Positions 1,178-26,782 of a stretch of DNA of 55,377 nt are shown one piece after another. Position numbers and translations under genes: made by a program. Source of the stretch: a bacterium (lineage in GTDB: Bacteria > UBA8248). Numbering within the stretch: position 1 is the first letter of the stretch; every line of letters begins with the position of its first letter. The stretch spans positions 1-55,377 of the forward strand of contig CBDBZY010000050.1 of the NCBI GenBank assembly GCA_965213685.1, given 5' to 3'. Under the pieces are notes generated by a model that was not told where the DNA came from, did not search any database, and worked only from the letters and a program-made list of their open reading frames with translations.

Positions 1178-2110
1178 GTGGCAAAGACGATCTATTTCAG
1201 CCATCCCGTATGCGCGGACCACGACCCCGGTGCGCGGCACCCGGAATCGGGCGCGCGCCTCGGAGCGATCGACGATGCGCTCGCCGCCGACGCGTATGCG
1301 GCGCTCGATCGCCGCGAGGCACCGGTGGCCGAGCCCGAGAGCCTCGCCTGGGCGCACGACCGGCAGCTGGTGGACGCCATCCTCGCCAACGTGCCCGATG
1401 AGGGACGCGTCGCCATCGACGCCGACACGGTGGTCTCGCCGGCCTCGGGCGAAGCGGCGCGGCGCGCGGCAGGCGCGGTAGCGGCCGCGGTGGACGCGGT
1501 GTTCGCCGGCGAGGCGAACAACGCCTTCTGCGCGGTACGCCCGCCCGGCCACCACGCCGAGCCGCGCCGGCCCATGGGGTTCTGCCTCTTCAACAACGTC
1601 GTGATCGGCGCAGAGCGGGCGCGGCGCGCCCACGGCATCACCCGCGTCGCGGTGGTCGACTTCGACGTCCACCACGGCAACGGCACGCAGGCCGCATTCG
1701 AGCAGGACGGCGACCTCTTCTTCGGCTCGACCCACCAGTGGCCGCTCTATCCGGGCACGGGCGCCGCGAGCGAGACCGGCGTCGGCAACATCGTAAACGC
1801 GCCGCTCTCGCCGGGCACCGCCTCCGCCGGCTTCCGCGACGCGATGGAGAGCCGCATGCTGCCCGCGCTCCGCGCCCACCGGCCTGAGCTGATCCTGATC
1901 TCCGCCGGGTTCGATGCGCACCGCGACGATCCGCTGGCGAACCTCGAGCTGGTCGAGGACGACTACCGCTGGATCACCACGGAGCTGACCCGGCTCGCGG
2001 GCGAGCTTTGCGACGGCCGCGTCGTCTCGACCCTCGAAGGCGGCTACAACCTGCGCGCCCTCGGCGCCAGCGCTGCCGCGCATGTCGAGGCGCTGATGGC
2101 GGCGGACTGA
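1178..2110 (+). CDS. Histone deacetylase family (AcuC/AphA-like) Zn-dependent deacylase
   Basis: HPES, RPPGHHA, GFCLFNN, DFDVHHGNGTQ, SAGFDAH, LEGGY motifs. Confidence 0.95.
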   Translation: MAKTIYFSHPVCADHDPGARHPESGARLGAIDDALAADAYAALDRREAPVAEPESLAWAHDRQLVDAILANVPDEGRVAIDADTVVSPASGEAARRAAGAVAAAVDAVFAGEANNAFCAVRPPGHHAEPRRPMGFCLFNNVVIGAERARRAHGITRVAVVDFDVHHGNGTQAAFEQDGDLFFGSTHQWPLYPGTGAASETGVGNIVNAPLSPGTASAGFRDAMESRMLPALRAHRPELILISAGFDAHRDDPLANLELVEDDYRWITTELTRLAGELCDGRVVSTLEGGYNLRALGASAAAHVEALMAAD

Positions 2111-2117
2111 GCCGGCC

Positions 2118-2418
2118 TCAGCCCGCCGCGTCCTCCTCGGGCGTCACGGTCTTGAGCGCCAGCGCGTGCACATCGGTCCGCAGCTCGTCTTCGAGCACGC
2201 TGTAGACCAGGCGCTGGCGGGCGACGCGGGAAAGACCTGCGAAGCGTGCCGAGGCGATCTCGACGATGAAGTGGCTCTCGCCCTCGGGCCGCGCGCCGAC
2301 ATGGCCGGCGTGACGCGCCGAATCGTCCACGATATCGAGGCGGCTGGGCGCGAGCGCCTCGCTCAGCTTGCGCCGGATCGGCGGCCTGGACCCGGCCGCT
2401 TTCGCCCTCAACCGCCAT
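2118..2418 (-). CDS. bolA: BolA family protein (probable frameshift near the N-terminus)
   Basis: LAPSRLDIVDDSARHAGH...GESHF...F.GLSRVARQRLVY...VHALAL. The ATG at 2418 (MAVEGESGRVQAA) is out of frame with the conserved body. Confidence 0.9.
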
Positions 2419-2456
2419 GCCTCGGCCTGCCACTGCCGCCAGAACCCGTGACAGGC

Positions 2457-2762
2457 CTACAGCCGCTTCTCGAAGTAGAAGCGCATGGTGTCGTCGGTGG
2501 TCTCGATCCGGCCCGAGAACGAGCTGAGATTGACCTCCAGCTCCGCAATCCGGAACGGCCGGCCGAGCACCTTCGCCACGGTCTCGGCCCGCACCACGCA
2601 CTCGCCGTCGGTCTCGGCCCGGACGTAGGCGACGCGATCCTCGACCGTGAACTCCTTGCCTGGATTGTCCTCCTCCAGGGCCTCGACCACGGCATCGGCG
2701 ACCTCGCCGGCACGCAGCACCGGGCCGACCATGTTGTTGCGGGCCACGCCGTCACCGCTCAT
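2457..2762 (-). CDS. tmoD: Soluble di-iron monooxygenase effector/coupling protein (TmoD/MmoB/DmpM family)
   Basis: NMVGPVLRAGEVADAV..A.EEDNPGKE..VEDR.AYVR...LGRPF...ELEVNLSSFSGRI signature; position after the ferredoxin. Confidence 0.93.
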   Translation of the reverse strand: MSGDGVARNNMVGPVLRAGEVADAVVEALEEDNPGKEFTVEDRVAYVRAETDGECVVRAETVAKVLGRPFRIAELEVNLSSFSGRIETTDDTMRFYFEKRL

Positions 2763-2795
2763 CGCCGTCTCCTCCGCTCCACCTGCCGCCCGCCG

Positions 2796-3131
2796 TCACG
2801 GCTTGGCATGCTTGGGCTCGATGCCCTCGACGTCCACCAGAACGTCCTCGCCCTCGATCTTGACCGGATACTGGGCGATCTCTGCGTGACCGGGGTTCAC
2901 CCCCTTGCCCGCCACCACGTCGAACTCCCAGAGATGCATCATGCAGGTCAGCACCCGGCCCTCCAGGTCGCCGTCCACCAGGTCGACCTCCTGATGCGGG
3001 CACTGCGCCTGGACCGCGTGAATGCCCTCGCCTTCGACATGGACCAGCAGCACCTCGGTGCCGTCCACGTCGAAGGTCTCCATGTCGCCTTCCCAGATCT
3101 CGTCCAGCGTGCAGGCCTTCTTGAACGCCAT
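2796..3131 (-). CDS. tmoC: Rieske [2Fe-2S] ferredoxin of the monooxygenase (TmoC/XamoC-like)
   Basis: C-terminal 111 aa of ORF 2796..4976: MAFKKACTLDEIWEGDM...CPHQ...CMMHLWEFD (CxH...CxxH Rieske ligands). Confidence 0.93.
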   Translation of the reverse strand: MAFKKACTLDEIWEGDMETFDVDGTEVLLVHVEGEGIHAVQAQCPHQEVDLVDGDLEGRVLTCMMHLWEFDVVAGKGVNPGHAEIAQYPVKIEGEDVLVDVEGIEPKHAKP

Positions 3132-3163
3132 GCGTCGGTCACTCCATCCCGTGTGCGCGCGGG

Positions 3164-3436
3164 CTACCGGGGCTCTTCGAAATAGATGTCGATGCAGTCG
3201 TAGTAGCGGATGCCCGCCTTCTCGACCGTGAGATCGCGCGGCCAGGGCGGCGCGGAGTCGTCCTCGGTGGTGGGCCGCACGCGCAGCGTCCGGCCGGGCT
3301 TGTCGGCCACGTGAAGGCCGATGGAGTGGAAGGCGCAGGTCGCCGCCACCTCGTCCATGGTCTGCGACGAATCGATCTCGACCGTCTTGATGTGCGCATC
3401 CTGCTGGAAGCGCGAGAGGATGGGGAACGCGCTCAT
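3164..3436 (-). CDS. tmoB: Hydroxylase gamma subunit (TmoB/TouB family)
   Basis: 90 aa, MSAFPI...F..D....V.ID...TMDEVA...A.HS.G..V...PG..LRVR...PRDLTV..AGI...D.IDI.FEE pattern, directly after the alpha subunit. Confidence 0.9.
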   Translation of the reverse strand: MSAFPILSRFQQDAHIKTVEIDSSQTMDEVAATCAFHSIGLHVADKPGRTLRVRPTTEDDSAPPWPRDLTVEKAGIRYYDCIDIYFEEPR

Positions 3437-3469
3437 GCCGCTCTCGACAACGCGATAGATGCCGCTGGG

Positions 3470-4960
3470 CTATTCCGCCGCCTGGGCCCGAAAGCCCTCG
3501 ACCCAGCCGTAATCGTGGCCGTCGCGGCCGCCCTCGCTGATGACGCCGATGCCCATGTAGGTGAGCACGTTCTCCAGCGTCGGCGGGTCGATCTCGCCCG
3601 AGTACATGCGGTCCACGATGGTCTCGTGGTCCTTGTAGCGCTCCGGGTCGGTATCGAAGATCCAGCGGCAGACCTCGGTGCAGAAGTTGTAGCGCCGCTC
3701 GCCGTACTCCCGCTGGTAGGCGCGCGCGCCCCATTCGGGGCCCGGCCGGTGCGAGATCGGGATCTGGCACATGTTGCAGATGATCGGGATGCACTGCGGG
3801 TGCGTCTTCTCCTCGTGCCCCTGCAGCAGATTGTTGGTGATCACGTCCCAGTAGCTGCCGTAGCTCTCGTTCCAGCCCGGATACTTCTCTTCCAGCCAGT
3901 CGCGCTCCGCAGGCCCCACCGCGCCCGGCGGGTTCCACCAGACCGTCGGCCGCCACGACCAGATGCCGCCCTGCTGGCAGTGGTGGTGGTTGTCGATATC
4001 CAGGAGGAAGATGTCCCAGTACCACGGCCGTTCCAGGCCGAGGTCCTGCACCTGCCGCTCCCACTGGTTGATCACCCACTCGTGCATGAACTCCTTGAAC
4101 GACATGTGCCGCTGCTCGAGCGGAATGTAGTAGTCCATCGGGATGCCGACGGTGATCGAGAACAGCCGCCAGACGCGCCAGAGCGCGATGTCCATCGCCT
4201 GCTGCGCTTCCTTCTTGCGGCCGTTGCGGATCATGATCTCGATGGTGGGCGTGCCGAGCTGGGCGTGACGCGCCTCGTCCGACTGGATGCTCGTGATCAG
4301 GTTCGCGAAGGTGTGATCGCCCATGTTCGCGGCGTCGGTGGAGAGCCCGATCATCTGCAGGTTGGTAAGCGCGGTCTCGAAGGCGAAGGAGACCATCACC
4401 GAGGACGTGATGGCGTCCCGCGTCATCATGATGTCGTCCATGGCGTGACGGCCGCCGAGCACCGCCCAGTTCTTGGAATGCTGCGCCTGATGGGCCCAGT
4501 CGTACTGGCGGTCGAGGTGAACCAGCTCGTGCGGGAAGAAGAGCTGCAGCTGGGTGTGCCGCAGCTCGTCGAGCATGCCGTAGACCGACATGTTGCGCAT
4601 CGCGGGCGACGGGCCGAAGCGCGACATCCGCGCCTGGAACTGGCAGGCCTGATACTCGGTCAGCGCGACCGCGCCATAGTGCAGCTTGAGCACGCTGGCC
4701 CAGCCCTCGTCGGCCTGGTCGTAGAACTTGGAGCGCGCCAGCGCCGCCTTCACCGAGTAGGCGGCCGAATCCTTCTCGCGCTGGATGTTCACGTACTCGC
4801 GGTACGCGACCTTGTACGGCTCGTCGAAGGTCTCCCACTCCTCGGTGGGAATGCCGTAAGGATCGCCCATCTGGGGCGGAAACAGCTCCTCCTGCGAGAC
4901 GTAGGAGGGCGTCCAATTTGTATCCCGCGCGATATCGTACCACTCGGAGCGCTCGAGCAT
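3470..4960 (-). CDS. tmoA: Toluene/alkene-type soluble di-iron monooxygenase hydroxylase alpha subunit
   Basis: MLERSEWYDIARDTNWTPSYV..., two DExRH di-iron motifs (DELRH, DEARH), FET..TN, WLEEKYPGW, C-terminal YHS-like domain; GGAGG RBS before the ATG at 4960. Confidence 0.96.
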   Translation of the reverse strand: MLERSEWYDIARDTNWTPSYVSQEELFPPQMGDPYGIPTEEWETFDEPYKVAYREYVNIQREKDSAAYSVKAALARSKFYDQADEGWASVLKLHYGAVALTEYQACQFQARMSRFGPSPAMRNMSVYGMLDELRHTQLQLFFPHELVHLDRQYDWAHQAQHSKNWAVLGGRHAMDDIMMTRDAITSSVMVSFAFETALTNLQMIGLSTDAANMGDHTFANLITSIQSDEARHAQLGTPTIEIMIRNGRKKEAQQAMDIALWRVWRLFSITVGIPMDYYIPLEQRHMSFKEFMHEWVINQWERQVQDLGLERPWYWDIFLLDIDNHHHCQQGGIWSWRPTVWWNPPGAVGPAERDWLEEKYPGWNESYGSYWDVITNNLLQGHEEKTHPQCIPIICNMCQIPISHRPGPEWGARAYQREYGERRYNFCTEVCRWIFDTDPERYKDHETIVDRMYSGEIDPPTLENVLTYMGIGVISEGGRDGHDYGWVEGFRAQAAE

Positions 4961-5091
4961 CGCCGACCTCCCGCACACTGACAATTCCGGGGCGCCGCGG
5001 CCTGCCGCCGCTGCCGCCGCAACGCCCGTCATTCTCTTGTCAAAGCAGGGCGGACGCAAGCAGGGACCCCGGAGCGCTTCACGGCCTGTCG

Positions 5092-6006
5092 TCAACCGAT
5101 CTGCGGCGCTTCGCGGCGCCAGGGCGCCAGCGCCTCCAGGGCGCGGTCCGGATAATCCGTCACGATGCCATCGACGCCGAGCCGGGCGAGCGCCTCCATG
5201 TCGGGCATCTCGTTCACCGTCCAGACGATGACCTTGAGGCCGAGCGTCCGGGCTTCGGCGAGCGATTCCGCCGTCAGGTCGGCATGAAAGGGCATCCATA
5301 CCGGGGCCCCGAAGCGATGGACCAGCCTCGGTACCGAGCCGCCTTCTGCGTCGACGCTCAGGCCCGCGGCCCACGGCGAGGGCTCGGCCCGGCCGCGCAG
5401 CACGGTGTCGCGCCAGCCTCGTTCGGAGGTCAGGCAGGCGATGGCGACTTCCGGCGCAATCGTGCGCAACGCCAGAAGCACGCGCCAATCGAAGGACTGG
5501 ACGGTCGCCCGGCCGATCGTGCCCTCCGCCCGCAGCACCGCCGCAACCGCCGATGCGAGCGCCTCCGGCCCCGCCGATTCGTGCGGCTCGAGCGGAGACG
5601 ACTTGATTTCGATATTGAAGCGGACCGTGCCGGCTGCCGGCCGCCGCCCCAGCGCCAAAACCTCCGCCAGAGTGGGAATGCGCGCGCCATCGCGCGGCTT
5701 CTGATGCGGGAACCGCAAGGCTGTCCGGCTGCCCGGCCTGGCTCTGCCGACATCGAGACCGGGCAGTTCCGCCGTATCCAGGTCCTTGAGCAACCGCCCC
5801 GACGGTTCGAGCCACGCCCAACTGGCGTCGCGCGTATGGTCCGGGTTGAGCGCCGGGTCGTGATGGACGACGGGAACCCCGTCCCGGGTCATGCAGACGT
5901 CCAGCTCCAGCGCATCGACGCCAAGGACGATCGCGCGCTCGAACCCGCACAACGTGTTTTCCGGCAGCAATCCGCGCGCGCCGCGATGGCCGTGTATCTC
6001 CAACAT
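5092..6006 (-). CDS. Glycerophosphodiester phosphodiesterase family protein
   Basis: HGHRGARGLLPENT, ELDV..TRDGVPVVHHD, NIEIKS, QSFD, WTVN, DGIVTDYP. Confidence 0.93.
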   Translation of the reverse strand: MLEIHGHRGARGLLPENTLCGFERAIVLGVDALELDVCMTRDGVPVVHHDPALNPDHTRDASWAWLEPSGRLLKDLDTAELPGLDVGRARPGSRTALRFPHQKPRDGARIPTLAEVLALGRRPAAGTVRFNIEIKSSPLEPHESAGPEALASAVAAVLRAEGTIGRATVQSFDWRVLLALRTIAPEVAIACLTSERGWRDTVLRGRAEPSPWAAGLSVDAEGGSVPRLVHRFGAPVWMPFHADLTAESLAEARTLGLKVIVWTVNEMPDMEALARLGVDGIVTDYPDRALEALAPWRREAPQIG

Positions 6007-6160
6007 TCGCGCGCTTCCCGCGGCGGCGCCTATCTGTGCCTCCCGGTCATGGGCTCCTCCTTCTGCTCGTCATGCGCGTCAGCCCGCGCGGCATCGTAGC
6101 GGAACGGCACGAGCGCCGAGGCAGCCCCCGCCAACTGGGACGCGCAACAAATTTTTATCC

Positions 6161-6310
6161 GGGATTGGCCGGGACTGGGCGAGACCACCGGGACAAGTGG
6201 GACGGATGGGACAAGTGGGATATCGCGCACGCGCGCAGCGTCGTGCAAGAGAAATGAAGAGTCCCGCCTCCGGCACGCGCGCAGCGTCGTACGCGCGAAA
6301 TGAAAAGTCC
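6161..6310. repeat. Short GGGA(C/T) tandem units followed by a ~38-bp imperfect direct repeat
   Basis: gggacaagt/gggacggat/gggacaagt/gggatat at 6190-6223; gcacgcgcgcagcgtcgt-N6-gaaatgaa-a-gtcc at 6227 and 6273 (46-bp period). Confidence 0.8.
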
Positions 6311-7187: not shown

Positions 7188-7234
7188 TTCCACTCTCTCC
7201 GCAAGTGAAAGCGGTTGTGGCGCAGCAGCTTTAG

Positions 7235-8440
7235 GGAAAGTCTGAACAACGCCATCTTCGCGGTTACGAGGGGGAGAGGGAGCTTGGATTTGAAGCGCGA
7301 CGATATTCCGGGCAGGCCGAGGGCTGCTGTCGTCGCAGGATACGGAGCGAAGGGGCGATATCCGCGTCGATCCGCCGCATTCCCCGCCGCCCCGCCAGCG
7401 GCGGCGGACAGACCGCTCCCCTGTCACCCCGTCGCGTAGCGGCCGGCGATCAGCAGGTTCGAGAACCCCAGCAGCAAGGCGATGCGCTGCCTGTTCTTCG
7501 CCACGCCCCGGTAGCGCACCTTGGCGTAGCCGAATTGCCGCTTCACGTACAGGAACGGATGCTCCACCTTCGCCCGCACCGACGCCTTGCGCCTCTCGGC
7601 CGCCGCTTCGGCGCCACCCTCGGCCAGAAGCCGCCGCCGCCCCGGCTTCATCGCCACATGCCACTCCACACCGCCATCCCGGTGCTCAGGCCGCTTCTCC
7701 ACCCCCTGGTAGCCCGCGTCGCCCCACGCCGTCGTCTCGGCACCATGCAGCAGCGCTCCCGCCTGCGTCACGTCGCTCGCATTGGCCGCCGTCGTCACCA
7801 CGCTGTGCGCCAGACCCGACCCGGCGTCCACCCCGATGTGCGCCTTCATCCCGAAATACCACTGCTTGCCCTTCTTCGTCTGATGCATCTCAGGGTCGCG
7901 GGCGCGGCGACGGTTCTTCGTCGACGACGGCGCCTCGATGATGCTCGCGTCGACGATCGTCCCCGTGCGCAGCCGATGCCCGCGCGAGGCCAGGTGCGCA
8001 TTGATCTCCTCGAACAAACCCGCGCCCAGATCGTGCCTCTCCAGAAGATGCCGGAAGTTCAGGATGGTGGTCTCGTCGGGCAGTGCCTCCGTCAGGCGCA
8101 ATCCTACGAAACGCCGCACCGACTCCACCTCGTAGAGCAGGTCCTCCATCCCCGGATCGCTCAGGTTGTAGAACAGCTGCACGCAGTGAACGCGCAACAT
8201 CACCTCAAGCGGGTACGGGCGCCGGCCGCGCCCCGGCTTCGGATAGAACGGCTCGATCCGTCGCTCCAACCGCTCCCAGGGAACCAGCTTGTCCATCTTC
8301 TCAAGGAACAACTCGCGCCGCGTCCGGCGCTTCTTCAAGTCGTGCTCCAGTTCCGAAAAGCTTGCCTGTGCCATGGCCCCATCATCCAGTCCGCGACTCC
8401 TGCCGCAAATCATCGCACACGAGACTTGATCAGAGGTTCC
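7235..8440 (-). mobile_element. Complete IS5-family insertion sequence (1206 bp) with TTAG target-site duplication
   Basis: Imperfect terminal IRs GGAAAGTCTGAACAAC (7235-7250) and the reverse complement GGAACCTCTGATCAAG (8425-8440), 12/16 identical; TTAG at 7231-7234 and 8441-8444, matching the IS5 YTAR target. Confidence 0.93.
7424..8374 (-). CDS. IS5 family DDE transposase
   Basis: MAQASF...TRRELFL..MDKLVPW, PDETTILNFRHLLE, IVDASII.APSSTKN, KGKQWYFGMKAHIGVD, GDAGYQG, RAKVEHPF. Confidence 0.96.
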   Translation of the reverse strand: MAQASFSELEHDLKKRRTRRELFLEKMDKLVPWERLERRIEPFYPKPGRGRRPYPLEVMLRVHCVQLFYNLSDPGMEDLLYEVESVRRFVGLRLTEALPDETTILNFRHLLERHDLGAGLFEEINAHLASRGHRLRTGTIVDASIIEAPSSTKNRRRARDPEMHQTKKGKQWYFGMKAHIGVDAGSGLAHSVVTTAANASDVTQAGALLHGAETTAWGDAGYQGVEKRPEHRDGGVEWHVAMKPGRRRLLAEGGAEAAAERRKASVRAKVEHPFLYVKRQFGYAKVRYRGVAKNRQRIALLLGFSNLLIAGRYATG

Positions 8441-10248: not shown

Positions 10249-10388
10249 CGTCCCGGCCTCCCGCCTGAATTCCAACGCAGTGTGACGTGGCGCGCTCACG
10301 CTCGGGCGAGGCGCCACGCGCTCTCTTTAGCATGGCGAACGGACGCAACCACCCCCACCAGCGCCCCGCCAGGTCGCCGCAGAGCGTC

Positions 10389-12598
10389 TCAGCCGGAGGC
10401 GAGCCACCGCAGCACGTTCTCCGTGATGCGCGAGACGTTGTTGTCGTAGTCGTTGTGCGGCAGCGGCGGGGCACCAGCACATCGAGCCTGCCGAGAACAC
10501 GCCGCCGCCGGCAGTCGTTTCGTAGTAGCTGACGTCCGACCTGATCCTCGCCGCCTGCCTCTCGACCGGCTCGTAGGGCATGGAGAAGTTGAGGCACAGC
10601 GGCGAGTGATCGGAGGAGGAGGCGAGCTTCAGCGTGGTTGGGCGGCGAGTTGACGTGGAGGCAATCGAACTCGTCGCCGGCCGCACCGCCCATGGCGAGG
10701 GCCGAAATCGCCGATCGGCTCGTCCTCTGCGACACCTTCGAAGATGAAGGCCGCCCGTTCGTCGAAGCTGTCGTCCATGCGGGAGTAAGGCTCCGCCTTG
10801 CAGAATCCCTGCGAGGTGTAGCCGGAGCCGAACAGGCGCTCCGGGCCCTTGCCGGCACCGCGCCAGCCGCCGCCCAAAATGCCGGTCGTCGCGTTGGTGG
10901 CGTTCGCCCGGGGGCGGCACCCATGGCGCCGAGGCCCCAGGGGTCCTCCTTCCTGACCTCGATGACATGGGGCCGCACGGGATCGCGGCTCGTCACCCAC
11001 CAGGCGCCGTTGCCGCCCAGGTTCATCAGGCTGCCGCCGCCGGACAGATAGGCTTCGAACGCCTTGTGCATGGCGTGGGAGAAGTATTCGGGATGCGAGC
11101 CGAGCAGCACGACCCGGTAGGGCGCGAGCAGCGCGGCTCCCTCGGCGTCGAGGTCCTCGTCGGTCGCGACATCGAAGGAGAAGCCCTTCCGGTCGAGCCA
11201 GTCGACGAGGTACATCTCGGCGCCGAAATGCCTGCCCGCGCCGCTCCAGTAGGCGGTGAGCTTGGGGCGCAGGTTGAGCACCGGCTTCAGGCGGGAGACC
11301 GTGCAGCAATAGCTGCCGTCGGTGTGCGCATCGTAGGTCGAGGGGCCGAGCTGCGCACCGAGGCGGGCCGCGAAGGCATCCTGGCGCGAGAGCACCACCG
11401 GATGGTCGCTCGCCAGATCCCACTGGACGAAGTCCTGCACATGAAAGCGCTCGTTGGCGTAGGCCATGTAGGTGAAGGTGGGGAGCAGGAAGAGGATATC
11501 CGCGCGCGGTGCGCCGGGCCCCGGCCGCACGAAGAACGGGACGTAGTCCTCTTCGTCCTCCGCGCCCCTGAGCCGCGCAGCGTAGACGCCGCTCGGCAGG
11601 TCGCCGGGCACCTCGTACACGAAGTCTGTCTCCCAGCCCGCATCGTCGACATCGTCGTCATGGAAGTAGATCGCCGCGTAATGCTCGGGATTCGCCGCGA
11701 AGCTTGACGAGGAGGCGTCCCAGGCGTGGTCGGTGACCCCGCGGGCCGGATTGTTGACGACCTCTGCGTCGAGCCCGTGAGGCCCGGCATCGGGCACCGA
11801 GAGGCCGAACGGTGTGGTCGCGAAGTCCCACGCCGCCGCGACGTCGCCGGGCGGCTCGTCGCCGCGCTCGATGGCGTCGATCTCCTCTTCCGAGAGGGCA
11901 CGCGCGTAGACCCGCGGGCGGTCGATCTTGCCGTTGAAGCACGCCCGGAACGGTGTCTCGTCTCCGGGGGCGGCACCCAGCGCCGCGATCAGCAGATCGG
12001 CCTCCGTCTCCGGCGCCGCGACATCGCTCACGGCATGCCGGCGCGCCGCGTGCTGCACCCAATGCGGCGAAAGCGCGTCCGATGTCGTCTGGACGAGCCG
12101 AACGGCGCCGCTTGCCGCATCCCAGCTCGCGGCGACGAAGGTCCAGCGGCGCGGCGCGACCGCGAGGTCGGACTGCAGCAGGAACGTGCTCTTCCCGTCG
12201 CTCAGCCGGAACGCGGTCATGCCGGCCTCGTCGACGACGAGGCTGTAGCCCGGACCGTCCGGGCCCTCGGCCTGGCCGACGATCCCTTGCTCCGCACCCC
12301 CCGGCATGGTGGCGTAGATCCAGGCCGTGACGGCAAGGCCCCGGCCCGCCGCCAGCGCCGGCGCATGGGCGACGCGCAGATGGGAGCCGGGCTTCATGGT
12401 CTGGACACGGCCCGGATATGTCCCGTTGCAGGCGGCGACGATCTCGTCTTCTCGGTAGCCGGGCCCTTCCGGGCGGTCATCGGCCTGCAGAAGGCGCACG
12501 ATGTCGGCTCGATAGGCGCCGACCTCGCTGTTGATCTTGAAGGCGATCGGCGCGCCCTGGCGCACGCTCCAGCAGTCGGCATAGCCATAGAGTTTCAT
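10389..12598 (-). CDS. N,N-dimethylformamidase beta-subunit-like protein (several frameshifts in the 3' ~550 bp)
   Basis: MKLYGYADCWSV, LamG-like domain (FNGKIDRP), FHDDD.DDAGW, LPSGVYAARL, PTFTYMAYAN, STYDAH.DG, GSHPEY, LGGNG; the C-terminus GGAAGDEFD...GGGVFSAGS...NNVSRITENVLR is pieced together across frames. Confidence 0.85.
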
Positions 12599-12818
12599 CG
12601 CTGGTCCCCTTCTTCCGTCCAGCCCCCGCGACAAGCTCAGGAGAAAGGACGCGCCTGGAGGGCCGCCGGGGCGCGGCGCGGGATCCGGGCCGCCACCGAC
12701 TTCCAAATATGGTGAGCGAGACCCGGCGCACACTCACGACCGCCGCCGGCAGGCCGGGCCTCGCGGGTGTCTCCCCGCGCGCCTCCCGCCGCCCCCTTCA
12801 AGAACGCCCGCGAAACCG

Positions 12819-12855
12819 GGGCCCCGAGACACATCCACGTAATGTCACGGGGCCC
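12819..12855. terminator. GC-rich hairpin just downstream of the SBP gene (terminator or mRNA-stabilising stem)
   Basis: gggccccgagaca-N11-tgtcacggggccc, a 13-bp stem with one mismatch; no strong U-tract. Confidence 0.45.
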
Positions 12856-12869
12856 GCACGTTCGTGTGC

Positions 12870-14438
12870 TCAGTTCAGGAGGACGTACTCCTCGATGTAC
12901 TTGAAGTGGTTGACGTAGCCCTCGGCCTCGTGGATGCGGGGCCTCAGCCGGTCCTCGCGGTAGGCGATGATCGCGGGCTTGCCGACCAGGGCGACCATGT
13001 TGGCCTGCGCATCGATGATGCTGCAGATCTCGCCGAAGAGCGCGTCTCGCTCGGCCCCCGGCGCGGTCTCCTTCGCCTGGTCGAGGAGGGCCGTGAGCTC
13101 TTCGTCCTTGAGCATGAACTTGCCGTTCCACTTCGCAAAGTCGGGGTCCCACCACGCCGGCACCATGACCGGATCGGTGTAGCCGGCGAACCAGGACATC
13201 GACATGTCGAACTCCCCTGTCTGGAGAAACCGTTCCAGCCATTCGCCGCGCGGCACCGCCTCGACGCTGACCGCCATGCCGATGTCCTTGAGGCTCTCGG
13301 CGATCACCTGGGCGATGAGCGGGAACACCGGGACGGTGGGCGAAGCCAGAAAGCCCACCTCGACCCCTTCGGCGCCGGCCTCGGCGAGCAGCATCCTGGC
13401 CTTCTCCACGCGCGCAGAGCGCGGCTCCTGGTAGGACGGCATGTCGCGGCAAACCGCCGAGGAGGGGAAGGCTGCGGGCACCGGATAGTCGACGCCGGCG
13501 GTGCCGGCGAGCGCGATGTCCGAAATCTTCTGACGGTCGAGCCCCAGCACCATGGCCTGGCGAACCCGCTCGTCGGCGAAGGGCGAGCCCATGTCAGGCA
13601 GGGCCTGGACGTCGATGCGGTAGTAGTCGGTGGTCTGCTGCACCTCCGTCCTCACGTTGGGCGTGTCGGCCAGCAGGATCGGCGTGTCCGGATTGTCGAA
13701 ATTGGCGATATGCACGCGTCCGTCGCGCAGCGCCCCGATTCGGGCCGCGTCGTCCGGGATGAGGAGAATCTTGACCTCGTCCACGACGGGATGCCCCTCG
13801 CGCCAGTAGTGCGGATTGCGCTGAAGCGTCCAGGACTCGTTCTGCAGGTGCTCGGTCACCATGAACGGTCCCGATCCCAGCATCTCTTTCGTGATGTCGA
13901 AGGTCCCGGCTTCCAGCTCTTCGAACGGGACGATCGAAGCGTTGACCGACGAGAGCGCCGCGAGCAGCGGCGTATAGGGCCGCTCCAGCTCGATGCGCAC
14001 GGTGTGCGCGTCGTCCGCGGCGATTTCGGTAATGGGTCCGGTCTGCTGCGCCCAGAACGAGCCAGTCTCGGGGTTCCTCAGCCGGTTCAGGCTCTTCACC
14101 ACGTCATCGGCGGTGACGGAACGTCCGTTCGAGAACTTGGCGTTCTGCCGCAGGTGAAAGACGTAGGTGGTGGGCGAGGGCTGCTCCCACGATTCGGCGA
14201 GCAGCGGCTCGAAGGTGAAATCCCCCGTGGGTTCGATCAGCGTCTCGTACACGAGGAACAGCACCTGCCACGTCACGCCGTTGGTCGCCACGTGCACGTC
14301 GAACGAATCGATATCGTTGGGCTTGCCCCATACGAGCGTGCCGCCCTTCATGTCCTCGGCCGACGCAGAGGCCGCAAACGCAAGCGCGAGACCGGCGGCA
14401 AGCGCCGCGCGCCGAACGCTCCTGCTCCAAGCTTTCAT
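12870..14438 (-). CDS. ABC transporter substrate-binding protein, family 5 (DppA/OppA-like)
   Basis: Signal peptide, YETLI, LAESW, FHLRQNAKFSNG..VTADDV..S, GSGPF, D.RVRQAM...LDR. Confidence 0.93.
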   Translation of the reverse strand: MKAWSRSVRRAALAAGLALAFAASASAEDMKGGTLVWGKPNDIDSFDVHVATNGVTWQVLFLVYETLIEPTGDFTFEPLLAESWEQPSPTTYVFHLRQNAKFSNGRSVTADDVVKSLNRLRNPETGSFWAQQTGPITEIAADDAHTVRIELERPYTPLLAALSSVNASIVPFEELEAGTFDITKEMLGSGPFMVTEHLQNESWTLQRNPHYWREGHPVVDEVKILLIPDDAARIGALRDGRVHIANFDNPDTPILLADTPNVRTEVQQTTDYYRIDVQALPDMGSPFADERVRQAMVLGLDRQKISDIALAGTAGVDYPVPAAFPSSAVCRDMPSYQEPRSARVEKARMLLAEAGAEGVEVGFLASPTVPVFPLIAQVIAESLKDIGMAVSVEAVPRGEWLERFLQTGEFDMSMSWFAGYTDPVMVPAWWDPDFAKWNGKFMLKDEELTALLDQAKETAPGAERDALFGEICSIIDAQANMVALVGKPAIIAYREDRLRPRIHEAEGYVNHFKYIEEYVLLN

Positions 14439-14585
14439 GGCGTCATCCTCCGCAGAATTTCAGGGGACAAGTCTAGCCCGCATGTCTTGCCAAGGTCACG
14501 GGCTGCGGGGCATGCGCGGTTGCGCGCGCCGCGAGGCGTTCGTTAACCTTCCCACGCGGCAGCGCGAGGGAGGCAGCCGAAGAGC

Positions 14586-15644
14586 GTGGATACGGCAAAG
14601 CGAATCTGGATCGCGGGCGCGGGCGGCATAGGCTCGGTGGTGGGTTATCGCCTGGCGCGCGCCGGCCTCGACCCGTTGCTCATCGACGGGTGGGACGACA
14701 ACGTGCGTGCCATCGACGACGCCGGCCTGCGCCTCGCCGGGCAGTTCGGGGACGTCCCGGTGCCGGCGCGGGCCATCGCGTTCGGCGATGCCGGCCGGGA
14801 GCCGGAACCGCCCGCCATCGTCCTGCTGTGCGGGAAGTCCTTCCAGACCGAACCCGTGCTTGACGCGCTCGCAGCAAAGCTCGCGCCGCCCGCCATCGTC
14901 GTGTCGCTCCAGAACGGCATGAACGAGGAGGCGATCGCTGCCCGCGTCGGCGCCGAACGGACCGTCGGCGCGGTCGTGGTCATGGACGCCGCGCTCACCG
15001 GGCCGGGTGTCGCGGCACAGGAGAACCCGGACGAGCGATCCTTCACGCTCGGCAGCCTCGACGGGGGGCCGAGCGCGGCCGTCGAGGCCGCCGCCGCCGT
15101 GCTGCGGGTCGTGGGCGACGTGCGTATCTCCGACGACATCGTCGGCGAGCTGTGGTCGAAGCTCGTGCACAACTGCATGATCAACGCGGTGTGCGCGCTC
15201 ACCGGTCTCACCGGAGCCCGCGCGCTGCGGCATCCGCAGGCATGGCCCTTCATTCGGATGCTGGGCCGCGAGGCCGTGGCGGTCTCCCGTGCCGAGGGTG
15301 TGACGCTCGGCGCGGCCGGCCTGTTCGGCTGCACGGCCCCGGACTTCCTGGAGGACGGCCGGGCCGCCCTTCTCGAGGAAGCCATCCTCGCCGCCTATCC
15401 GGAGACCGAGGAGCTCTATCCCTCCATGGCGCAGGACGTGGCGAAGGGGCGGCCAACCGAAATTGGATGGCTCAACGGGTGGATCGAGGACGTGGGGCGC
15501 AAGGCCGGTGTCGCGACGCCCGCGAACAGCCGCATCGCCGCGTTGATCGGGGAGGTCGAGCGGGGCGCGCTCAAGGCCGGCGAACAGAACGTCGGATTGC
15601 TGGACGAAGCGCCCGCGGCCGCGACCCCGGCGGAAGGAGGATGA
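14586..15644 (+). CDS. Ketopantoate reductase (PanE/ApbA)-like NAD(P)H 2-oxoacid reductase
   Basis: GAGGIG, KSFQT, SLQNG, LWSKLVHNCMIN, SMAQDVAKGRPTEI..LNG. Confidence 0.88.
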   Translation: MDTAKRIWIAGAGGIGSVVGYRLARAGLDPLLIDGWDDNVRAIDDAGLRLAGQFGDVPVPARAIAFGDAGREPEPPAIVLLCGKSFQTEPVLDALAAKLAPPAIVVSLQNGMNEEAIAARVGAERTVGAVVVMDAALTGPGVAAQENPDERSFTLGSLDGGPSAAVEAAAAVLRVVGDVRISDDIVGELWSKLVHNCMINAVCALTGLTGARALRHPQAWPFIRMLGREAVAVSRAEGVTLGAAGLFGCTAPDFLEDGRAALLEEAILAAYPETEELYPSMAQDVAKGRPTEIGWLNGWIEDVGRKAGVATPANSRIAALIGEVERGALKAGEQNVGLLDEAPAAATPAEGG

Positions 15645-15645
15645 G

Positions 15646-16347
15646 ATGTCGGAGCCGACCGGCCTGACCGAGGCGGAGATCGAAGCGCTGCGCGCCATCG
15701 ATTCCGGCACCGTGGCCAACGCCGTCGACAGCTTCGGCGTGCGTGAGCGGATTGCTGGCTTCGCGTCCCTGGAGCTGCGCTGCCTCAACCCGGACCTGCC
15801 GCCGGTCGTGGGCTACGCCGTGACCTGCACCGAGGACGTCACGACCGCGCTCAGGCGACCGCGCGAGAGCTACGAGGCGCTGCTGCGCGCGATCGAGGAG
15901 ACGCCCAAGCCGGCAATCGTCGTCTTCAAGGCCCTGGGCCAGGACCGGCTGCGCTCGTGCCATGTCGGCGACATGATGTGCACGCTGCTCCAGCGCATGG
16001 GCGTCGTCGCGGTGGTGACCGACGGCGCGGCGCGCGACCTCAAGGCGGTGCGCGAACGCGCGCCGGACTTTCAACTCTTCGCCGCGGGCATGGTGCCGGC
16101 GGGCGGCGACTACACCATGTTCGACGTGGGCGGACAGGTCTCGATCTGCGGCCTCAGGATCGCCCCCGGAGACCTGCTGCACGGCGACGTCAACGGCCTG
16201 CTCTCGATCCCCGCCCAGGTCGCCCGACGCGTGCCCGAGAAGGCGCGGCAAATCCGCGAATTCGAGAGCGACTTCGTCGAGTTCGTCAACGGACCGGACT
16301 TCTCGGTCGCCGAGCTCGGCCGCAGGTTCGGGCCGCCGTGGGGATAA
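15646..16347 (+). CDS. RraA family / HMG-aldolase-like protein (paralogue 1)
   Basis: DSGTVANA, P.VGYAVT, GD, TDGAARD, PGDLLHGDVNG. Confidence 0.88.
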   Translation: MSEPTGLTEAEIEALRAIDSGTVANAVDSFGVRERIAGFASLELRCLNPDLPPVVGYAVTCTEDVTTALRRPRESYEALLRAIEETPKPAIVVFKALGQDRLRSCHVGDMMCTLLQRMGVVAVVTDGAARDLKAVRERAPDFQLFAAGMVPAGGDYTMFDVGGQVSICGLRIAPGDLLHGDVNGLLSIPAQVARRVPEKARQIREFESDFVEFVNGPDFSVAELGRRFGPPWG

Positions 16348-16361
16348 GAGGGGAACGCACG

Positions 16362-17075
16362 ATGACACCGCCGCCGCCACACCTCACCGCGCAGCAGATC
16401 GAGGCGCTCCGGAAGATCGACTCGGCGACGCTGTGCAACGCGATCGAGACCTTCGACGTGCGCGATGCGACCACCGGCTTCGCGTCGCTGGAGTTGCGCT
16501 GCATGTTTCCGGAACTGCCTCCGGTGGCCGGCTACGCGGTCACCTGCACGGTGGATTCGACCACCCCGCGTCCCGGCGGGCCGAGCGGACTCGATGGGCT
16601 CGTCCGGGCGCTCGCCGCGGCGCCCAAGCCGGCCATCGTGGTTATGAAGGCCGAGGGACAGGAGCACCTGCGCAACTGCCATCTGGGCGATGTCGTGTGC
16701 ACGATCCTCAGCAGAATGGGTGCCGTCGCAGCAGTGTCCGATGCAGGCGTGCGCGACCTCGCCGGAATAGCCGAGCGCGCGCCGGGCTTCCAGGTGTTTG
16801 GCGCGGGCTGCGTGGTATCGCACGGCTCCTACGCGATCGTGGATGTCGGCACCACCGTCTCGGTCTGCGGCCTCACGGTCTCGCCGGGCGACCTGCTGCA
16901 TGGCGATGCGAACGGTCTCGCCTCGATTCCCCACGCCATCGCCGACCGCCTGCCGGAGGCAGCCCGCGACGTCCTGGCGGCCGAGCAGCGCATCGTCGAT
17001 TACGTCCAGGGTCCGGATTTCGATCCGGAAACTCTCGCCGAGCGGCTGGCCGGCAGGGGCGGTGAGCACAAGTGA
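16362..17075 (+). CDS. RraA family / HMG-aldolase-like protein (paralogue 2)
   Basis: C-terminal part of ORF 15957..17075 from the ATG at 16362; DSATLCNA, GYAVT, GD, SDAGVRD, PGDLLHGDANG. Confidence 0.88.
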   Translation: MTPPPPHLTAQQIEALRKIDSATLCNAIETFDVRDATTGFASLELRCMFPELPPVAGYAVTCTVDSTTPRPGGPSGLDGLVRALAAAPKPAIVVMKAEGQEHLRNCHLGDVVCTILSRMGAVAAVSDAGVRDLAGIAERAPGFQVFGAGCVVSHGSYAIVDVGTTVSVCGLTVSPGDLLHGDANGLASIPHAIADRLPEAARDVLAAEQRIVDYVQGPDFDPETLAERLAGRGGEHK

Positions 17076-17099
17076 CTACTGCGCGTCCTCCAAGTTGAT

Positions 17100-17540
17100 C
17101 TACTCGTGATCCATGTCGCCGCCGTGGTCCTTCATCTCCCCGTGCGTGTGATCCATGTCGCCGGAGCCGGCACCGAAATCCAGCTTCTTGACGACACGGT
17201 CGCGGGTCGGGCCGCTGACGTCCAGAGTCAACGCCCACTCGCCCAGCATTTCGAGCTCCAGCGTGGCGGTGTAGTGGCCGGGCAGTGAGGCCGGCGCCGC
17301 CTTCACGGGTCGCACACTGTGCGCCAGCGGCATGGACGGCATGTCGGCCTTGATAATGACCTCGGCGCCCTCCACGGGGTCGCCGCTCTTCTTGCCCTTG
17401 AGCATGATCGTGCAGTCGTAGGTCAGCCTTTCTGCTGCTGGCGTGCAGCTCACGTCCGCCGCCACCCGCTCGCCCGCCCAGGCCGAAAGGCTCGCCGCCA
17501 ACATCGCCGAGAGCGCCAACAATCCGATCGGAATACGCAT
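17100..17540 (-). CDS. Exported YtkA/FixH-like protein with a His/Met-rich tail
   Basis: Signal peptide; G.PVEGAEV...ADMPSMPLAH...PG.Y...L...MLGEW.L; tail DMDHTHGEMKDHGGDMDHE. Confidence 0.7.
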   Translation of the reverse strand: MRIPIGLLALSAMLAASLSAWAGERVAADVSCTPAAERLTYDCTIMLKGKKSGDPVEGAEVIIKADMPSMPLAHSVRPVKAAPASLPGHYTATLELEMLGEWALTLDVSGPTRDRVVKKLDFGAGSGDMDHTHGEMKDHGGDMDHE

Positions 17541-17543
17541 CGT

Positions 17544-18260
17544 TCACCCTCCCCGTTGCAGACCCAGATAAGCACTGACCAACAGCTCGTGCTCGGCGAG
17601 CGCCGCAGCCTCGCCGTCCAGTATGATCCGCCCGCTTTCCAGCACGTAGCCCCGATCCGCGATCGCCAGTGCCTGGCGGACGTTCTGCTCCACCAGCAGG
17701 ATCGTCACGCCCGTATCCCGCAGCCGCGCGATCAGGGCGAAGACCTCCTGGGCGGCGATGGGGGCAAGGCCGAGGGAAGGCTCGTCCAGCAGCAGCAGCT
17801 TCGGCCGGGCCATCAGCCCGCGCGCCAGCGCCAGCATCTGGGCCTGACCGCCGCTCAGCGCCGAGCCGCGCTCGTCGAGCCTGTCGCGCAGCATCGGGAA
17901 GAATTCGAGCACGCGGTCGAAGTCCGCTTCCGCCCTAGCGCGGCCGGGCACGTTGTAGGCGCCGAGCCGCAGGTTCTGCGCGATGGTGAGCCCGCCGAAG
18001 ATCAGCCGTCCCTCCGGCACCTGCACGATTCCGTGCCGCATGATCCGATGCGGCGGTAAGCGCGCGATGCGCTGCCCGAGGAAGCGAATCTCCCCGGCGG
18101 CGGGCCGCTCGATGCCGCACACCGCATGCATGGTCGAGCTCTTGCCGGCGCCGTTGGCCCCGATCAGCGCGACGATCTCGCCCTCCTCCACTTCCAACGA
18201 CAAGCCCTGAACAGCGCGCACCTTGCCGTAGCTGACGTGCAGGTCGCTCACTTCAAGCAT
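17544..18260 (-). CDS. LIV-type ABC transporter ATPase (LivF-like, set 2)
   Basis: GANGAGKS, VPEGR.IF, LSGGQ, LLLDEPSLGLAP, VEQN. Confidence 0.93.
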   Translation of the reverse strand: MLEVSDLHVSYGKVRAVQGLSLEVEEGEIVALIGANGAGKSSTMHAVCGIERPAAGEIRFLGQRIARLPPHRIMRHGIVQVPEGRLIFGGLTIAQNLRLGAYNVPGRARAEADFDRVLEFFPMLRDRLDERGSALSGGQAQMLALARGLMARPKLLLLDEPSLGLAPIAAQEVFALIARLRDTGVTILLVEQNVRQALAIADRGYVLESGRIILDGEAAALAEHELLVSAYLGLQRGG

Positions 18261-19008
18261 GGACCGCATCCCGGCCGAGATAGGCCTCCAGCACCTCGGC
18301 CTGCTGCAGGACCGCATCCGGCGCGCCGTCCGCGATCTTGCGGCCGAAATTGAGCACGCAGAGGCGCTGGCACAGCGCCGAGATCAGGTCGAGCTTGTGC
18401 TCGATGACGATGCAGGTCCGCCCCGCCAGCGCGAAGTCGCGTATGAGAGCGGCTATCTCCGCCGTCTCGGCCGGGGTCATGCCGCCGGCCGGCTCATCCA
18501 GGAGCAGCAACGCCGGGGAGCGCACCAGCGCTCGCGCCAGTTCGAGGCGCCGCTGATCGGGCAGCGGCAGGCTGCCCGCGAGCACGTCCCGCCGGTCCGC
18601 GAGGCCGACCGCGTCGAGCAGCCGGTCCACCTCCTCCCTCCGCGTCCGTTCGCTCGCGGATCGGTTCGACAGCAGCTCCAGTGGCCCGACGCCGGGTAGG
18701 CTGTGTTGCGCCGCCCAGACGTTCTCGCGCACGCTCATGCGCTTGTAGATGCGGAGGTTCTGGAAGGTCCGCGCGATGCCGTGGCGGACGATCCGGGCCG
18801 GCGTGCTCTTGGTAATGTCCTCGTCGCGCAGGAGCACGCGGCCGGCATCCGGCGGATGGACTCCGGTGATCACGTTGAACAGCGTCGTCTTGCCGGAGCC
18901 GTTGGGCCCGATGAGGCCCACCACCTCGCCGTCGGCGACCGCGAGATCGAGCGCCTCCAGGGCCGCGACGCCCCCGAAGGACCGGCTCAGGCTTTCAATT
19001 CGCAGCAC
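18253..19008 (-). CDS. LIV-type ABC transporter ATPase (LivG-like, set 2)
   Basis: GPNGSGKT, ARTFQN, LLLDEPAGG, IEH, AYLG. Confidence 0.93.
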   Translation of the reverse strand: MLRIESLSRSFGGVAALEALDLAVADGEVVGLIGPNGSGKTTLFNVITGVHPPDAGRVLLRDEDITKSTPARIVRHGIARTFQNLRIYKRMSVRENVWAAQHSLPGVGPLELLSNRSASERTRREEVDRLLDAVGLADRRDVLAGSLPLPDQRRLELARALVRSPALLLLDEPAGGMTPAETAEIAALIRDFALAGRTCIVIEHKLDLISALCQRLCVLNFGRKIADGAPDAVLQQAEVLEAYLGRDAVHA

Positions 19009-19906
19009 GCCGAAGACCTCGCCACTGCCCGCGCAGCCAATGGACGGCGGCCTCGTCCAGCAGCCCGCGCGGGCGCACGATGAGCAGCACGGCGACCAGG
19101 CCGCCGAAGACGATCATCCGATAGCCGGAGATCGCGCGGATCGATTCCAGCAGGCCGATATCGATGGCGACGCCGATCAAGGGTCCGAAGGCCGTGCCGA
19201 GGCCGCCGATCAGGCCGTAGGCCAAGCCGTGCACGCCCAGCATGACGTTGAAGATCTTGGGCTCGACGTAGGTCGTCAGGTGGGCGTAGAGGGCGCCCCC
19301 GATGCCGGCGACGACACCGGCCATGACGACGGCCAAGATCTTGTAGAGGTTGACGTTGAGCCCCTGCATCTCCGTCAGCATCGGGTCCTCGCCGATCATC
19401 CGGAAGATGGCGCCGAGGCGGGAGCGTTCGAGGATCAGGAAGCCGATCAGGACCACCGCCAGCAGCCCGTAAATGATCAGCAGGTACTCGAAATCCGAGA
19501 CGTTGCTGTCGTAGATGGCGCGAATGTCGCGGAAGCCGTCGGAGCCGTCGGGTCCCACCAGCTCACCGTCGATCTCGACCCGGTAGGTGAAGATCTCGAG
19601 GATCAGCCGCACCATCTCGGCGAACGCGAGCGTCGCCACGGAGAAGTAGAGCCCGCGCAGCCGCACCGTGGGGATCGCCACCACCAATCCCGCGGCTCCG
19701 GCGAGCAGCGCGCCCCACAGCAGGCCGAGCCAGATCGGCCAGCCCCACATCGCGGTCGCGATGCCCGAGCCGTAGGCGCTGACGGCAAAGAACGCCTGCT
19801 GGCCGAACGAAATCTCGCCGACCACGAGCAGGAGATAGGCCGAGAGCGCGATGAACGAGATCATCCCGATGTTGGAGAGCACCGCGATGAGATAGATGCT
19901 GTCCAT
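18995..19906 (-). CDS. LIV-type ABC transporter permease (LivM-like, set 2)
   Basis: GEISFGQ.AFF, RLRGLYFSVATLAF, SRLG, GGLG...GP. Confidence 0.92.
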   Translation of the reverse strand: MDSIYLIAVLSNIGMISFIALSAYLLLVVGEISFGQQAFFAVSAYGSGIATAMWGWPIWLGLLWGALLAGAAGLVVAIPTVRLRGLYFSVATLAFAEMVRLILEIFTYRVEIDGELVGPDGSDGFRDIRAIYDSNVSDFEYLLIIYGLLAVVLIGFLILERSRLGAIFRMIGEDPMLTEMQGLNVNLYKILAVVMAGVVAGIGGALYAHLTTYVEPKIFNVMLGVHGLAYGLIGGLGTAFGPLIGVAIDIGLLESIRAISGYRMIVFGGLVAVLLIVRPRGLLDEAAVHWLRGQWRGLRRAAN

Positions 19907-19909
19907 CGC

Positions 19910-20809: not shown

Positions 20810-20851
20810 CGACCTCTTCCCGCGTCGCTGTCGGAGGTCCGGCCACCGGCC

Positions 20852-22388: not shown

Positions 22389-22392
22389 CGCT

Positions 22393-23286: not shown

Positions 23287-23301
23287 CGCCTTCTCCCCCG
23301 C

Positions 23302-24183: not shown

Positions 24184-24267
24184 CCGATCATCCCCCGCCA
24201 AAGAGGCGTCGGCGAAATGCGAGCGGGCGTGCGCCGGTGCCTGCGGCGCACACCTGCCCGATAACGA

Positions 24268-25479: not shown

Positions 25480-25744
25480 CTGCCTCTCCCTCTCTCGATG
25501 ACAATGGAAATGGTTTCGACCGGCCCCGTGCGGTTCGGGCTTCCGCCATCCAATGCGGCGAATGGCCGATCCGCCCCGGCCGATATATCGTTGACTCGAT
25601 CTTATACCCGCCGCGCGGTGGGAGTCAGGGGATACTTGCCGGCGGCAGCGAGCCTGACCATCCGAGACTGCCCCTTCCCTCCTGTCGCTCGCGGCAAAGT
25701 GGTATGGAAACGGCTGAACGCCACCGCTCGAACCGGGAGCCACC

Positions 25745-26741: not shown

Positions 26742-26782
26742 CGCAATTTCTCCCAGGCCCCATAGGCTTTAGGCTTGCCGCC

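Follow-up and report, generated by a model that had tools for sequence, protein, structure and literature searches.

We have analyzed a 55,377-nucleotide stretch of bacterial DNA, the whole of contig CBDBZY010000050.1 (C50 below) of assembly GCA_965213685.1, which we call the window. Between positions 2457 and 4960 it carries a cassette of four genes that resemble tmoA, tmoB, tmoC and tmoD (A, B, C and D) of the toluene monooxygenases. The listing of open reading frames (ORFs) and the sequence indicate that all four are intact and closely spaced on the minus strand, in the order A-B-C-D. The two other genes of such enzymes, tmoE (E) for the beta subunit of the hydroxylase and tmoF (F) for the reductase, are not found at this locus, and in closely related genomes both are located at separate chromosomal sites. 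The cassette and the features that delimit it are the following.

3470-4960, minus strand: tmoA/touA-like hydroxylase alpha subunit with the di-iron site; 496 amino acids (aa); Pfam PF02332 Phenol_Hydrox (2.1e-71) plus a YHS domain
3164-3436, minus strand: tmoB-like hydroxylase gamma subunit; 90 aa; PF06234 TmoB (3e-19)
2796-3131, minus strand: tmoC-like Rieske [2Fe-2S] ferredoxin; 111 aa; PF00355 Rieske (2.8e-17)
2457-2762, minus strand: tmoD-like cofactorless effector; 101 aa; PF02406 MmoB_DmpM (9.6e-31)
2419-2456, minus strand: D-bolA spacer of 38 nt, the site of tmoE in other genomes; from the sequence and the alignment with four relatives
2118-2418, minus strand: bolA-like gene, downstream boundary, outside the enzyme; PF01722 BolA (4e-29); syntenic in loci L006, L008, L009 and L025
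5092-6006, minus strand: GDPD-family phosphodiesterase gene, upstream boundary, outside the enzyme; PF03009 (5.7e-42)

The Pfam matches of all four cassette proteins were far above the curated cut-offs, and the alpha and gamma proteins gave no equivalog match in NCBIfam. The tmoC-like translation carries a CPH...CMMH motif (CxH...CxxH). The effector gene ends with a TAG codon at 2459-2457, and the ATG found 38 nt past this stop, at 2418, aligns with the bolA start of the relatives. After bolA there is a gene of the HDAC family on the opposite strand, and at the other side the end of the GDPD gene is separated from the alpha start by 131 nt. A remnant of tmoE was searched for in the D-bolA spacer, by tblastn with beta subunits and by alignment with four relatives, and none was found. 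A first-pass annotation, made from the sequence alone, had described four intact genes in canonical order, lying so close to bolA and GDPD that there was neither room for, nor remnant of, tmoE and tmoF; the ORFs and Pfam matches confirm the former, and the sequence, tblastn and alignment the latter.

The encoded enzyme

In a search of solved structures the alpha subunit aligned end to end, over residues 1-492, with the alpha subunit of toluene/o-xylene monooxygenase (ToMO; 1t0q_A, E 2e-201), and over residues 3-489 with that of toluene 4-monooxygenase (T4MO; 3dhg_A, E 6.5e-199). Far weaker matches were obtained for phenol hydroxylase, at E 1.5e-41, and for methane monooxygenase, at E about 1e-12. 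A hand count on the 1t0q_A alignment gave ~65% identity to ToMO alpha. In the same alignment residues E102, E132, H135, E195, E229 and H232 are conserved, together with T199; we take the first six to be at the positions of the di-iron ligands of TouA, and T199 at that of the conserved threonine (the T201 equivalent). At the gating or active-site positions I100 and E103 (TouA numbering) the cassette alpha has V and T, respectively.

Several defining features of the group-2 enzymes are present: an alpha subunit of ~500 aa with two E...EXXH di-iron motifs, a TmoB-family gamma subunit encoded after it, a Rieske ferredoxin and an MmoB/DmpM effector. The contiguous ABCDEF order is missing, since bolA comes 38 nt past D. 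This order is, however, a trait of the model operons and not a requirement of the enzyme, and 21 out of 28 related loci are likewise without F nearby. Judged by its sequence, the cassette belongs to a canonical group-2 (toluene/alkene-type, Tou/Tmo) four-component soluble di-iron monooxygenase (SDIMO), for which a hydroxylation or epoxidation activity dependent on NADH and O2 is predicted. The first-pass annotation had considered it the best candidate of the window for an undescribed system, a proposal that the end-to-end alignments with the ToMO and T4MO alphas at E about 1e-199 do not support. There is no novelty in the proteins themselves; the unusual feature is the split organization of the genes, conserved in six genomes counting that of the window, and possibly also a shared electron-transfer chain (see below).

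Related loci without E after D

A scan with one genome per species retrieved 46 loci encoding relatives of the alpha subunit. All those that carry a name come from uncultured bacteria, the closest of them labelled Alphaproteobacteria or Rhodospirillales. In five close relatives (loci L025, L006, L007, L008 and L009; genomes G001 to G005) the alpha subunit is 94-100% identical and the genes are again A-B-C-D without E after D, so that the ABCD-only clusters that the first-pass annotation had suggested looking for among close alpha homologues do exist. The bolA and HDAC genes follow D in L025, L006, L008 and L009, and the contig of L007 stops 1 bp after D. Two of these loci, L008 and L009, belong to records assembled to chromosome level (6.17 and 4.15 Mb, respectively). 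Synteny links the window to all five relatives, with nucleotide identities of 82-93% along most of the DNA in common. Among the related loci only L025 has the GDPD gene next to the cassette, indicating that the upstream context varies.

We considered as informative the loci with D plus a downstream flank of 400 bp or more, 37 of the 46. A beta gene was found no further than 600 bp after D in 30 of them, and elsewhere in the cluster in L036 and L044 (before A) and in L037 (between B and C). A cognate beta was missing from the cluster only in L006, L008, L009 and L025; the beta gene present at L009 (genome G004) belongs to a neighboring divergent A-B-E cluster. As to the reductase, a TmoF-like gene was detected within 2.5 kb of D in seven of the 28 loci with at least 2.5 kb of flank, all seven titled as, or grouping with, Gammaproteobacteria, i.e., a reductase missing at the locus is the rule in this collection.

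The D-bolA region varies in some details. An element of ~150 bp with terminal inverted repeats (of the type of repetitive extragenic palindromes or miniature inverted-repeat transposable elements) is located between tmoD and bolA in L025 (10203-10375), L006 (10497-10684) and L008 (10509-10700), and is absent from the window and from L009, in which the spacer is as short as in the window. We examined this stretch as possible remains of tmoE and rejected it, being an inverted-repeat element and not a coding remnant. The alignment with four relatives shows an additional base in the window near 2380-2385, as a result of which the conserved bolA ATG (2418) is not in the reading frame of the BolA domain; a TTG at 2411 shares that frame. 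The extra base is missing from one contig of sequencing run X1 and could be either a strain variant or a consensus error. Besides, two of the related clusters that have E after D carry an insert of ~2.8 kb between tmoB and tmoC (L012:9777-12659 and L024:9754-12492).

An orphan beta gene in the relatives

Family PF02332, that detects beta as well as alpha subunits, gave 26 matches in the genomes of the five relatives, which were classified with tblastn maps as 13 alpha and 13 beta, specifically 2+2 in G003 and G005 and 3+3 in G001, G002 and G004. Equal numbers were also found in three further genomes of the clade (2+2 in G006, G007 and G010), two of them chromosome-level. Each of the five relatives has one orphan beta gene, with no alpha gene within ~9 kb (9-19 kb were fetched around it). 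Its distance from ABCD is 120 kb in G003 and 33 kb in G004. In all five genomes the orphan tmoE is followed by genes for a thiolase, an enoyl-CoA hydratase and an acyl-CoA dehydrogenase; a gene of the FAA-hydrolase family was found after this row at two loci, those of G005 and G001.

The phylogeny of the beta subunits (45 sequences) placed the five orphans in one clade, with a support of 96 in the Shimodaira-Hasegawa-like approximate likelihood ratio test (SH-aLRT), inside a clade of nine rows (99) with the in-cluster betas of L010, L011, L012 and L013, that sit directly after D. The alpha tree (38 sequences) has the same shape, with the window and the five relatives (99) inside a clade of ten rows (98) together with the alphas of L010-L013. 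Compared with the beta of L010, the orphan beta of G005 shows 80% identity, in step with the values of A (92%), B (81%), C (83%) and D (85%). This agreement between both trees, and of the identities with those of A to D, identifies the orphan beta as the translocated orthologue of the tmoE of the cassette.

The alternative that survives best, even if an unlikely one, is that the cassette is a swappable alpha-gamma(-C-D) module that borrows its beta from a paralogous cluster (of the types with alphas 52% or 68% identical) and uses any reductase on hand. In its favor, the relatives hold one or two more group-2-like clusters with their own beta, and in G004 the A-B-E cluster divergently adjoins ABCD. 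In the wider clade, genomes G008 and G009 have a tandem cluster A-B-A2-B2-C-D-E (L021:5265-10602 and L023:550-5884), with two alpha-gamma pairs for one ferredoxin, one effector and one beta gene, the alphas being 76% and 64% identical to that of the window. Genome-wide PF02332 matches were 3 alpha to 2 beta in each of the two, metagenome-assembled genomes (MAGs) that may both be incomplete, and there a beta subunit may be shared between hydroxylases. However, the five close relatives all keep an orphan beta, orthologous to the in-cluster tmoE of the nearest ABCDE genomes, and once it is counted the numbers of alpha and beta are equal in all of them. The paralogous betas are 55-62% identical to the reference beta E14, versus 66-70% for the orphan beta. 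Since the latter co-diverges with the cassette alpha, a borrowed beta is not needed.

Reductase, ferredoxin and a possible shared electron-transfer chain

Exactly one full-length TmoF-like reductase was found in each of the five relatives (E 1e-56 to 1e-60, 39-41% identity to an in-cluster TmoF-like query). It is a protein of 333 aa with Fer2, FAD_binding_6 and NAD_binding_1 domains, 76-93% conserved among the five genomes, and its gene is remote from ABCD (at 0.54 vs 5.09 Mb in G003 and at 0.51 vs 1.63 Mb in G004). We infer that this stand-alone reductase serves the cassette enzyme.

The tmoC of the cassette has one orthologue per relative genome (91-97% identity). It is the only TmoC-type gene in G001, G003, G004 and G005, where the next-best Rieske match does not exceed 33%; G002 has a second TmoC-type copy (47%) in an A-C-D-E cluster. 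In addition, all five relatives carry a second group-2-like cluster, with an alpha 52% identical, that has the genes A-B-D-E and no ferredoxin gene (L074:5402-8788 in G005; L084, L085 and L086). The outgroup relatives of this cluster, L039-L041, keep C between A and D.

A sole tmoC in four of the five relatives, one reductase, two to three hydroxylase sets and a second cluster without ferredoxin gene lead us to suggest, tentatively, that the cassette might be the hub of a distributed network. One ferredoxin and one reductase would serve two or three alpha-beta-gamma hydroxylases of different specificity, and the gene of the cognate beta would be part of a beta-oxidation-like operon, read from the same type of promoter as ABCD. 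If ferredoxin and reductase were indeed shared, soluble di-iron monooxygenases would have a naturally occurring case of modular wiring, of help for heterologous expression and for reading the hydrocarbon and aromatic oxidation potential of uncultured marine Alphaproteobacteria.

The source assembly is a mixture

In the whole assembly from which the window comes (G000, 7.97 Mb in 71 contigs), PF02332 detected only the alpha gene of the window, MmoB_DmpM and TmoB were above cut-off only at this cassette, and in tblastn the best E was 0.17, the queries being two reductases and two beta subunits of related clusters. This assembly is a multi-organism mixture, and arguments of presence or absence based on it need care. 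The GC content of its contigs covers the range 0.327-0.688 and falls into at least three groups (~0.44-0.53, ~0.65 and ~0.69), with the largest contigs at 0.44-0.53 and C50, at 0.688, at the top of the range. Seven proteins of G005, DNA ligase among them, had best identities in G000 of only 33-45%, while the alpha of G005 is all but identical to that of the window. Likewise, ~112 kb of DNA of the relatives from outside the syntenic block (L072-L078) found in G000 only short pieces at 67-69%, none above 70% outside C50. As for other contigs of high GC, C8 (0.673) had no real match in four relatives, and C47 (0.688) matched the relatives mainly in multi-copy repeats, at 70-86% identity.

Within this mixture, C50 represents a stray piece of an alphaproteobacterium of high GC. 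Since the assembly holds almost nothing else of the C50 lineage, the absence of beta and reductase from it carries no weight, and the alpha and beta copies of the source genome cannot be counted; both genes look absent only because C50 is a stray piece of a mixed assembly. The warning is general: absence from a source genome means nothing if the assembly mixes organisms. A beta-independent hydroxylase, i.e., an alpha-gamma pair that works without any beta, could be read from the lack of a beta gene in the window and in G000, but the second of these is weightless for the reason just given. Besides, the alpha is a close full-length match to the alphas of ToMO and T4MO, which depend on beta, and a cognate beta is kept under purifying selection in all five relatives. 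We consider this reading highly improbable.

Selection, expression and the D-bolA junction

The ratios of nonsynonymous to synonymous change (dN/dS) were calculated by the Nei-Gojobori method, for A to D between the window and the relatives and for the orphan E among the relatives.

A: dN/dS 0.01-0.10
B: dN/dS 0-0.20
C: dN/dS 0.04-0.13
D: dN/dS 0.06-0.30
orphan E, among relatives: dN/dS 0.14-0.16

They were taken at dS values of 0.16-0.39, with the exception of B vs L025 (dS 0.016). All parts of the cassette, and the orphan E, are under purifying selection with no sign of relaxation. Some evidence comes also from Logan contigs of the RNA libraries X15 and X18 (labelled sponge metagenome), with pieces 90-95% identical over D, C, B and A. 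One contig of 875 nt spans C, B and the 3' end of A; contigs that run over several genes need not derive from one transcript. We take these contigs as a weak hint of expression in relatives, DNA carry-over being possible.

These data bear on whether the cassette is a decaying remnant of an ABCDEF operon that lost E and F by deletion and has no current function. The locus is without both genes, and an insertion sequence (IS) is found 2.5 kb away, at 7424-8413. Yet the four frames are intact, the di-iron ligand positions are conserved, dN/dS stays at 0.01-0.30 across five genomes at those same dS values, the arrangement is conserved in six genomes, and the RNA-library contigs, with the reservation just made, cover all four genes. 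We find decay very hard to sustain. The first-pass annotation had also raised relaxed selection in a copy whose homologues would all be in full operons, and what we see is the opposite on both counts, with low dN/dS and five ABCD-only relatives.

A mis-join between 2418 and 2457 that lost tmoE and tmoF, the other doubt raised at the outset, is next to impossible, because L006, L008, L009 and L025, which come from independent assemblies (two at chromosome level), have the D-bolA junction as well, and for this metagenome-style contig we found no supporting sign of it. The reads add little here. The contigs of run X1 have depth in the bins on both sides of 2418-2457, with no listed piece bridging the junction; one of them joins 2378 to 2805, the content between its sides being undefined; and run X2 has no cover over 2278-2691. 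We have drawn nothing from either run.

Promoter-like motif upstream of A and of the orphan E

A conserved motif was found in front of the cassette.

5031-5060, minus strand: promoter-like motif CTTGCG-N17-GAGAAT, ~70 nt upstream of the alpha start; putative promoter

Upstream of alpha the TTGC and GA.AAT columns are invariant in all eight aligned sequences, with -35/-10-like spacing, and the rest is variable. Upstream of the orphan E, CCTTGCG and GACAATCGC are invariant in five out of five sequences and have the same spacing, so that CTTGCG-N17-GA(G/C)AAT is common to the A and orphan-E upstream regions in the five relatives. The joint pattern CTTGCG-N16-18-GA(G/C)AAT appears once in the window versus 0.02 expected, and in the 98 fetched loci it is restricted to the regions in front of alpha and in front of the orphan E. 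With a relaxed pattern, L009, L011 and L012 also match in front of alpha, and there are six scattered matches, none of which, in the same 98 loci, is at a reductase or a 52%-type cluster. The alpha upstream regions of L010, L011 and L012 all carry the relaxed form, and of these only L010 fits the strict pattern. The two units, ABCD and the orphan E, each have their own conserved promoter-like element, a situation compatible with common control.

A scan of 1900-6200 for sigma-70 and terminator consensus sequences gave no promoter-like site and one terminator-like site, inside alpha, no more than in shuffled sequences. We also considered a sigma-54 reading (GG-N10-GC) of the TTGC upstream of alpha and dropped it for the -35/-10 one, a correctly spaced GG being present in only some of the eight sequences (by eye).

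A split operon as the best explanation

Taken together, these results very probably reflect a di-iron monooxygenase of the usual toluene type, the operon of which has been split in a lineage-specific manner, with the beta subunit and the reductase encoded elsewhere on the chromosome. The window cassette would supply four of the six parts, i.e., the catalytic alpha, the gamma, the Rieske ferredoxin and the effector. The tmoE would have moved to another chromosomal site, where it heads the row of thiolase, enoyl-CoA hydratase, acyl-CoA dehydrogenase and FAA-hydrolase genes, and the NADH:ferredoxin oxidoreductase would be a single stand-alone gene at a third site. An (alpha-beta-gamma)2 hydroxylase, fed from reductase to ferredoxin and tuned by the effector, could in this manner be assembled from three transcription units. 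By extrapolation from the relatives, which are at roughly 85-93% nucleotide identity, the window organism is expected to carry an orphan E and an F gene as well. The beta-oxidation-like neighbors of the orphan E may bear on the substrate, only as a hint. Of the three options that the first-pass annotation had left side by side, it is the split operon that the data favor, with a remote beta and a single reductase in five out of five relatives; they give no support to the beta-independent variant, and the swappable module is not needed.

Several points weigh against this explanation. The orphan E and F were seen in the relatives and not in the organism of the window itself, and the window, which covers 2.4 kb beyond bolA and ~50 kb beyond the GDPD gene, has no beta gene at either side. 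Three of the five relatives are fragmented MAGs, whose gene counts could be incomplete. The stand-alone reductase is only 34-43% identical to the in-cluster reductases, and its assignment comes from being the only match. The trees were made by a quick method, with SH-aLRT as the only support. As for the motif, it was defined after both alignments had been viewed, and it resembles a generic alphaproteobacterial sigma-70 promoter, so it is no proof of co-regulation.

The consequence is for surveys in which monooxygenase potential is scored by complete tmoABCDEF operons: the lineage would be taken as incomplete, or the cassette as exotic, when its parts are in fact dispersed over the chromosome. 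A narrow full-text search, with supplements excluded, found no description of a split tmo-type operon or of an orphan tmoE; the supplementary tables of one of the papers (PMC13603553) may list incomplete operons.

Other features of the window

The IS at 7424-8413 is a transposase gene (DDE_Tnp_1 plus DUF772, 329 aa) that falls in a gap of the L025 alignment (7201-8439) and looks like an insertion in the window. A larger region, 10360-26745 (~16.4 kb), has no counterpart at this place in L006, L007 and L025; it contains a DMFA2_C/Laminin_G_3 protein, an SBP_bac_5 binding protein and two tandem gene sets for branched-chain-type ABC transporters. Domains of a GlnE/GlnD-type adenylyltransferase are spread across two adjacent ORFs (48579-50999 and 51054-52349), which may be due to a frameshift or a mis-called start. 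Finally, at 34108-34446 there is an ORF for a toxin of the HigB/RelE family (PF09907, 5.7e-29).

Comparison with known systems

ToMO (touABCDEF) shares with the cassette the A-B-C-D order, the TmoB, Rieske and MmoB/DmpM families and the di-iron ligand positions. In the ToMO operon, touE and touF come directly after touD as part of a single operon, whereas the window locus is without E and F, and the relatives have them at separate chromosomal sites. T4MO (tmoABCDEF) has the logic that we would expect also for the cassette enzyme, with reductase, Rieske ferredoxin, (alpha-beta-gamma)2 hydroxylase and effector. Unlike in the relatives of the cassette, where the parts are in at least three units, its genes form a contiguous six-gene cluster, according to the text of PMC13603553.

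The isoprene monooxygenase (isoABCDEF) and the alkene monooxygenase of Xanthobacter are of the same SDIMO group and have the A-B-C-D order (in part from the text of PMC5864225). They differ from the window in that here E and F are not contiguous with ABCD and there are no genes for glutathione- or coenzyme M-dependent epoxide metabolism. More broadly, none of the 41 other window ORFs scanned was a downstream gene of hydrocarbon, epoxide or catechol catabolism. The closest likeness is with the ABCDE clusters of uncultured Alphaproteobacteria (L010-L028), which are orthologous (alpha 75-92% identical), keep the A-B-C-D order and have no reductase at the locus. The difference is that they retain tmoE right after tmoD, while the subclade of the window, six genomes with the window included, has it elsewhere.

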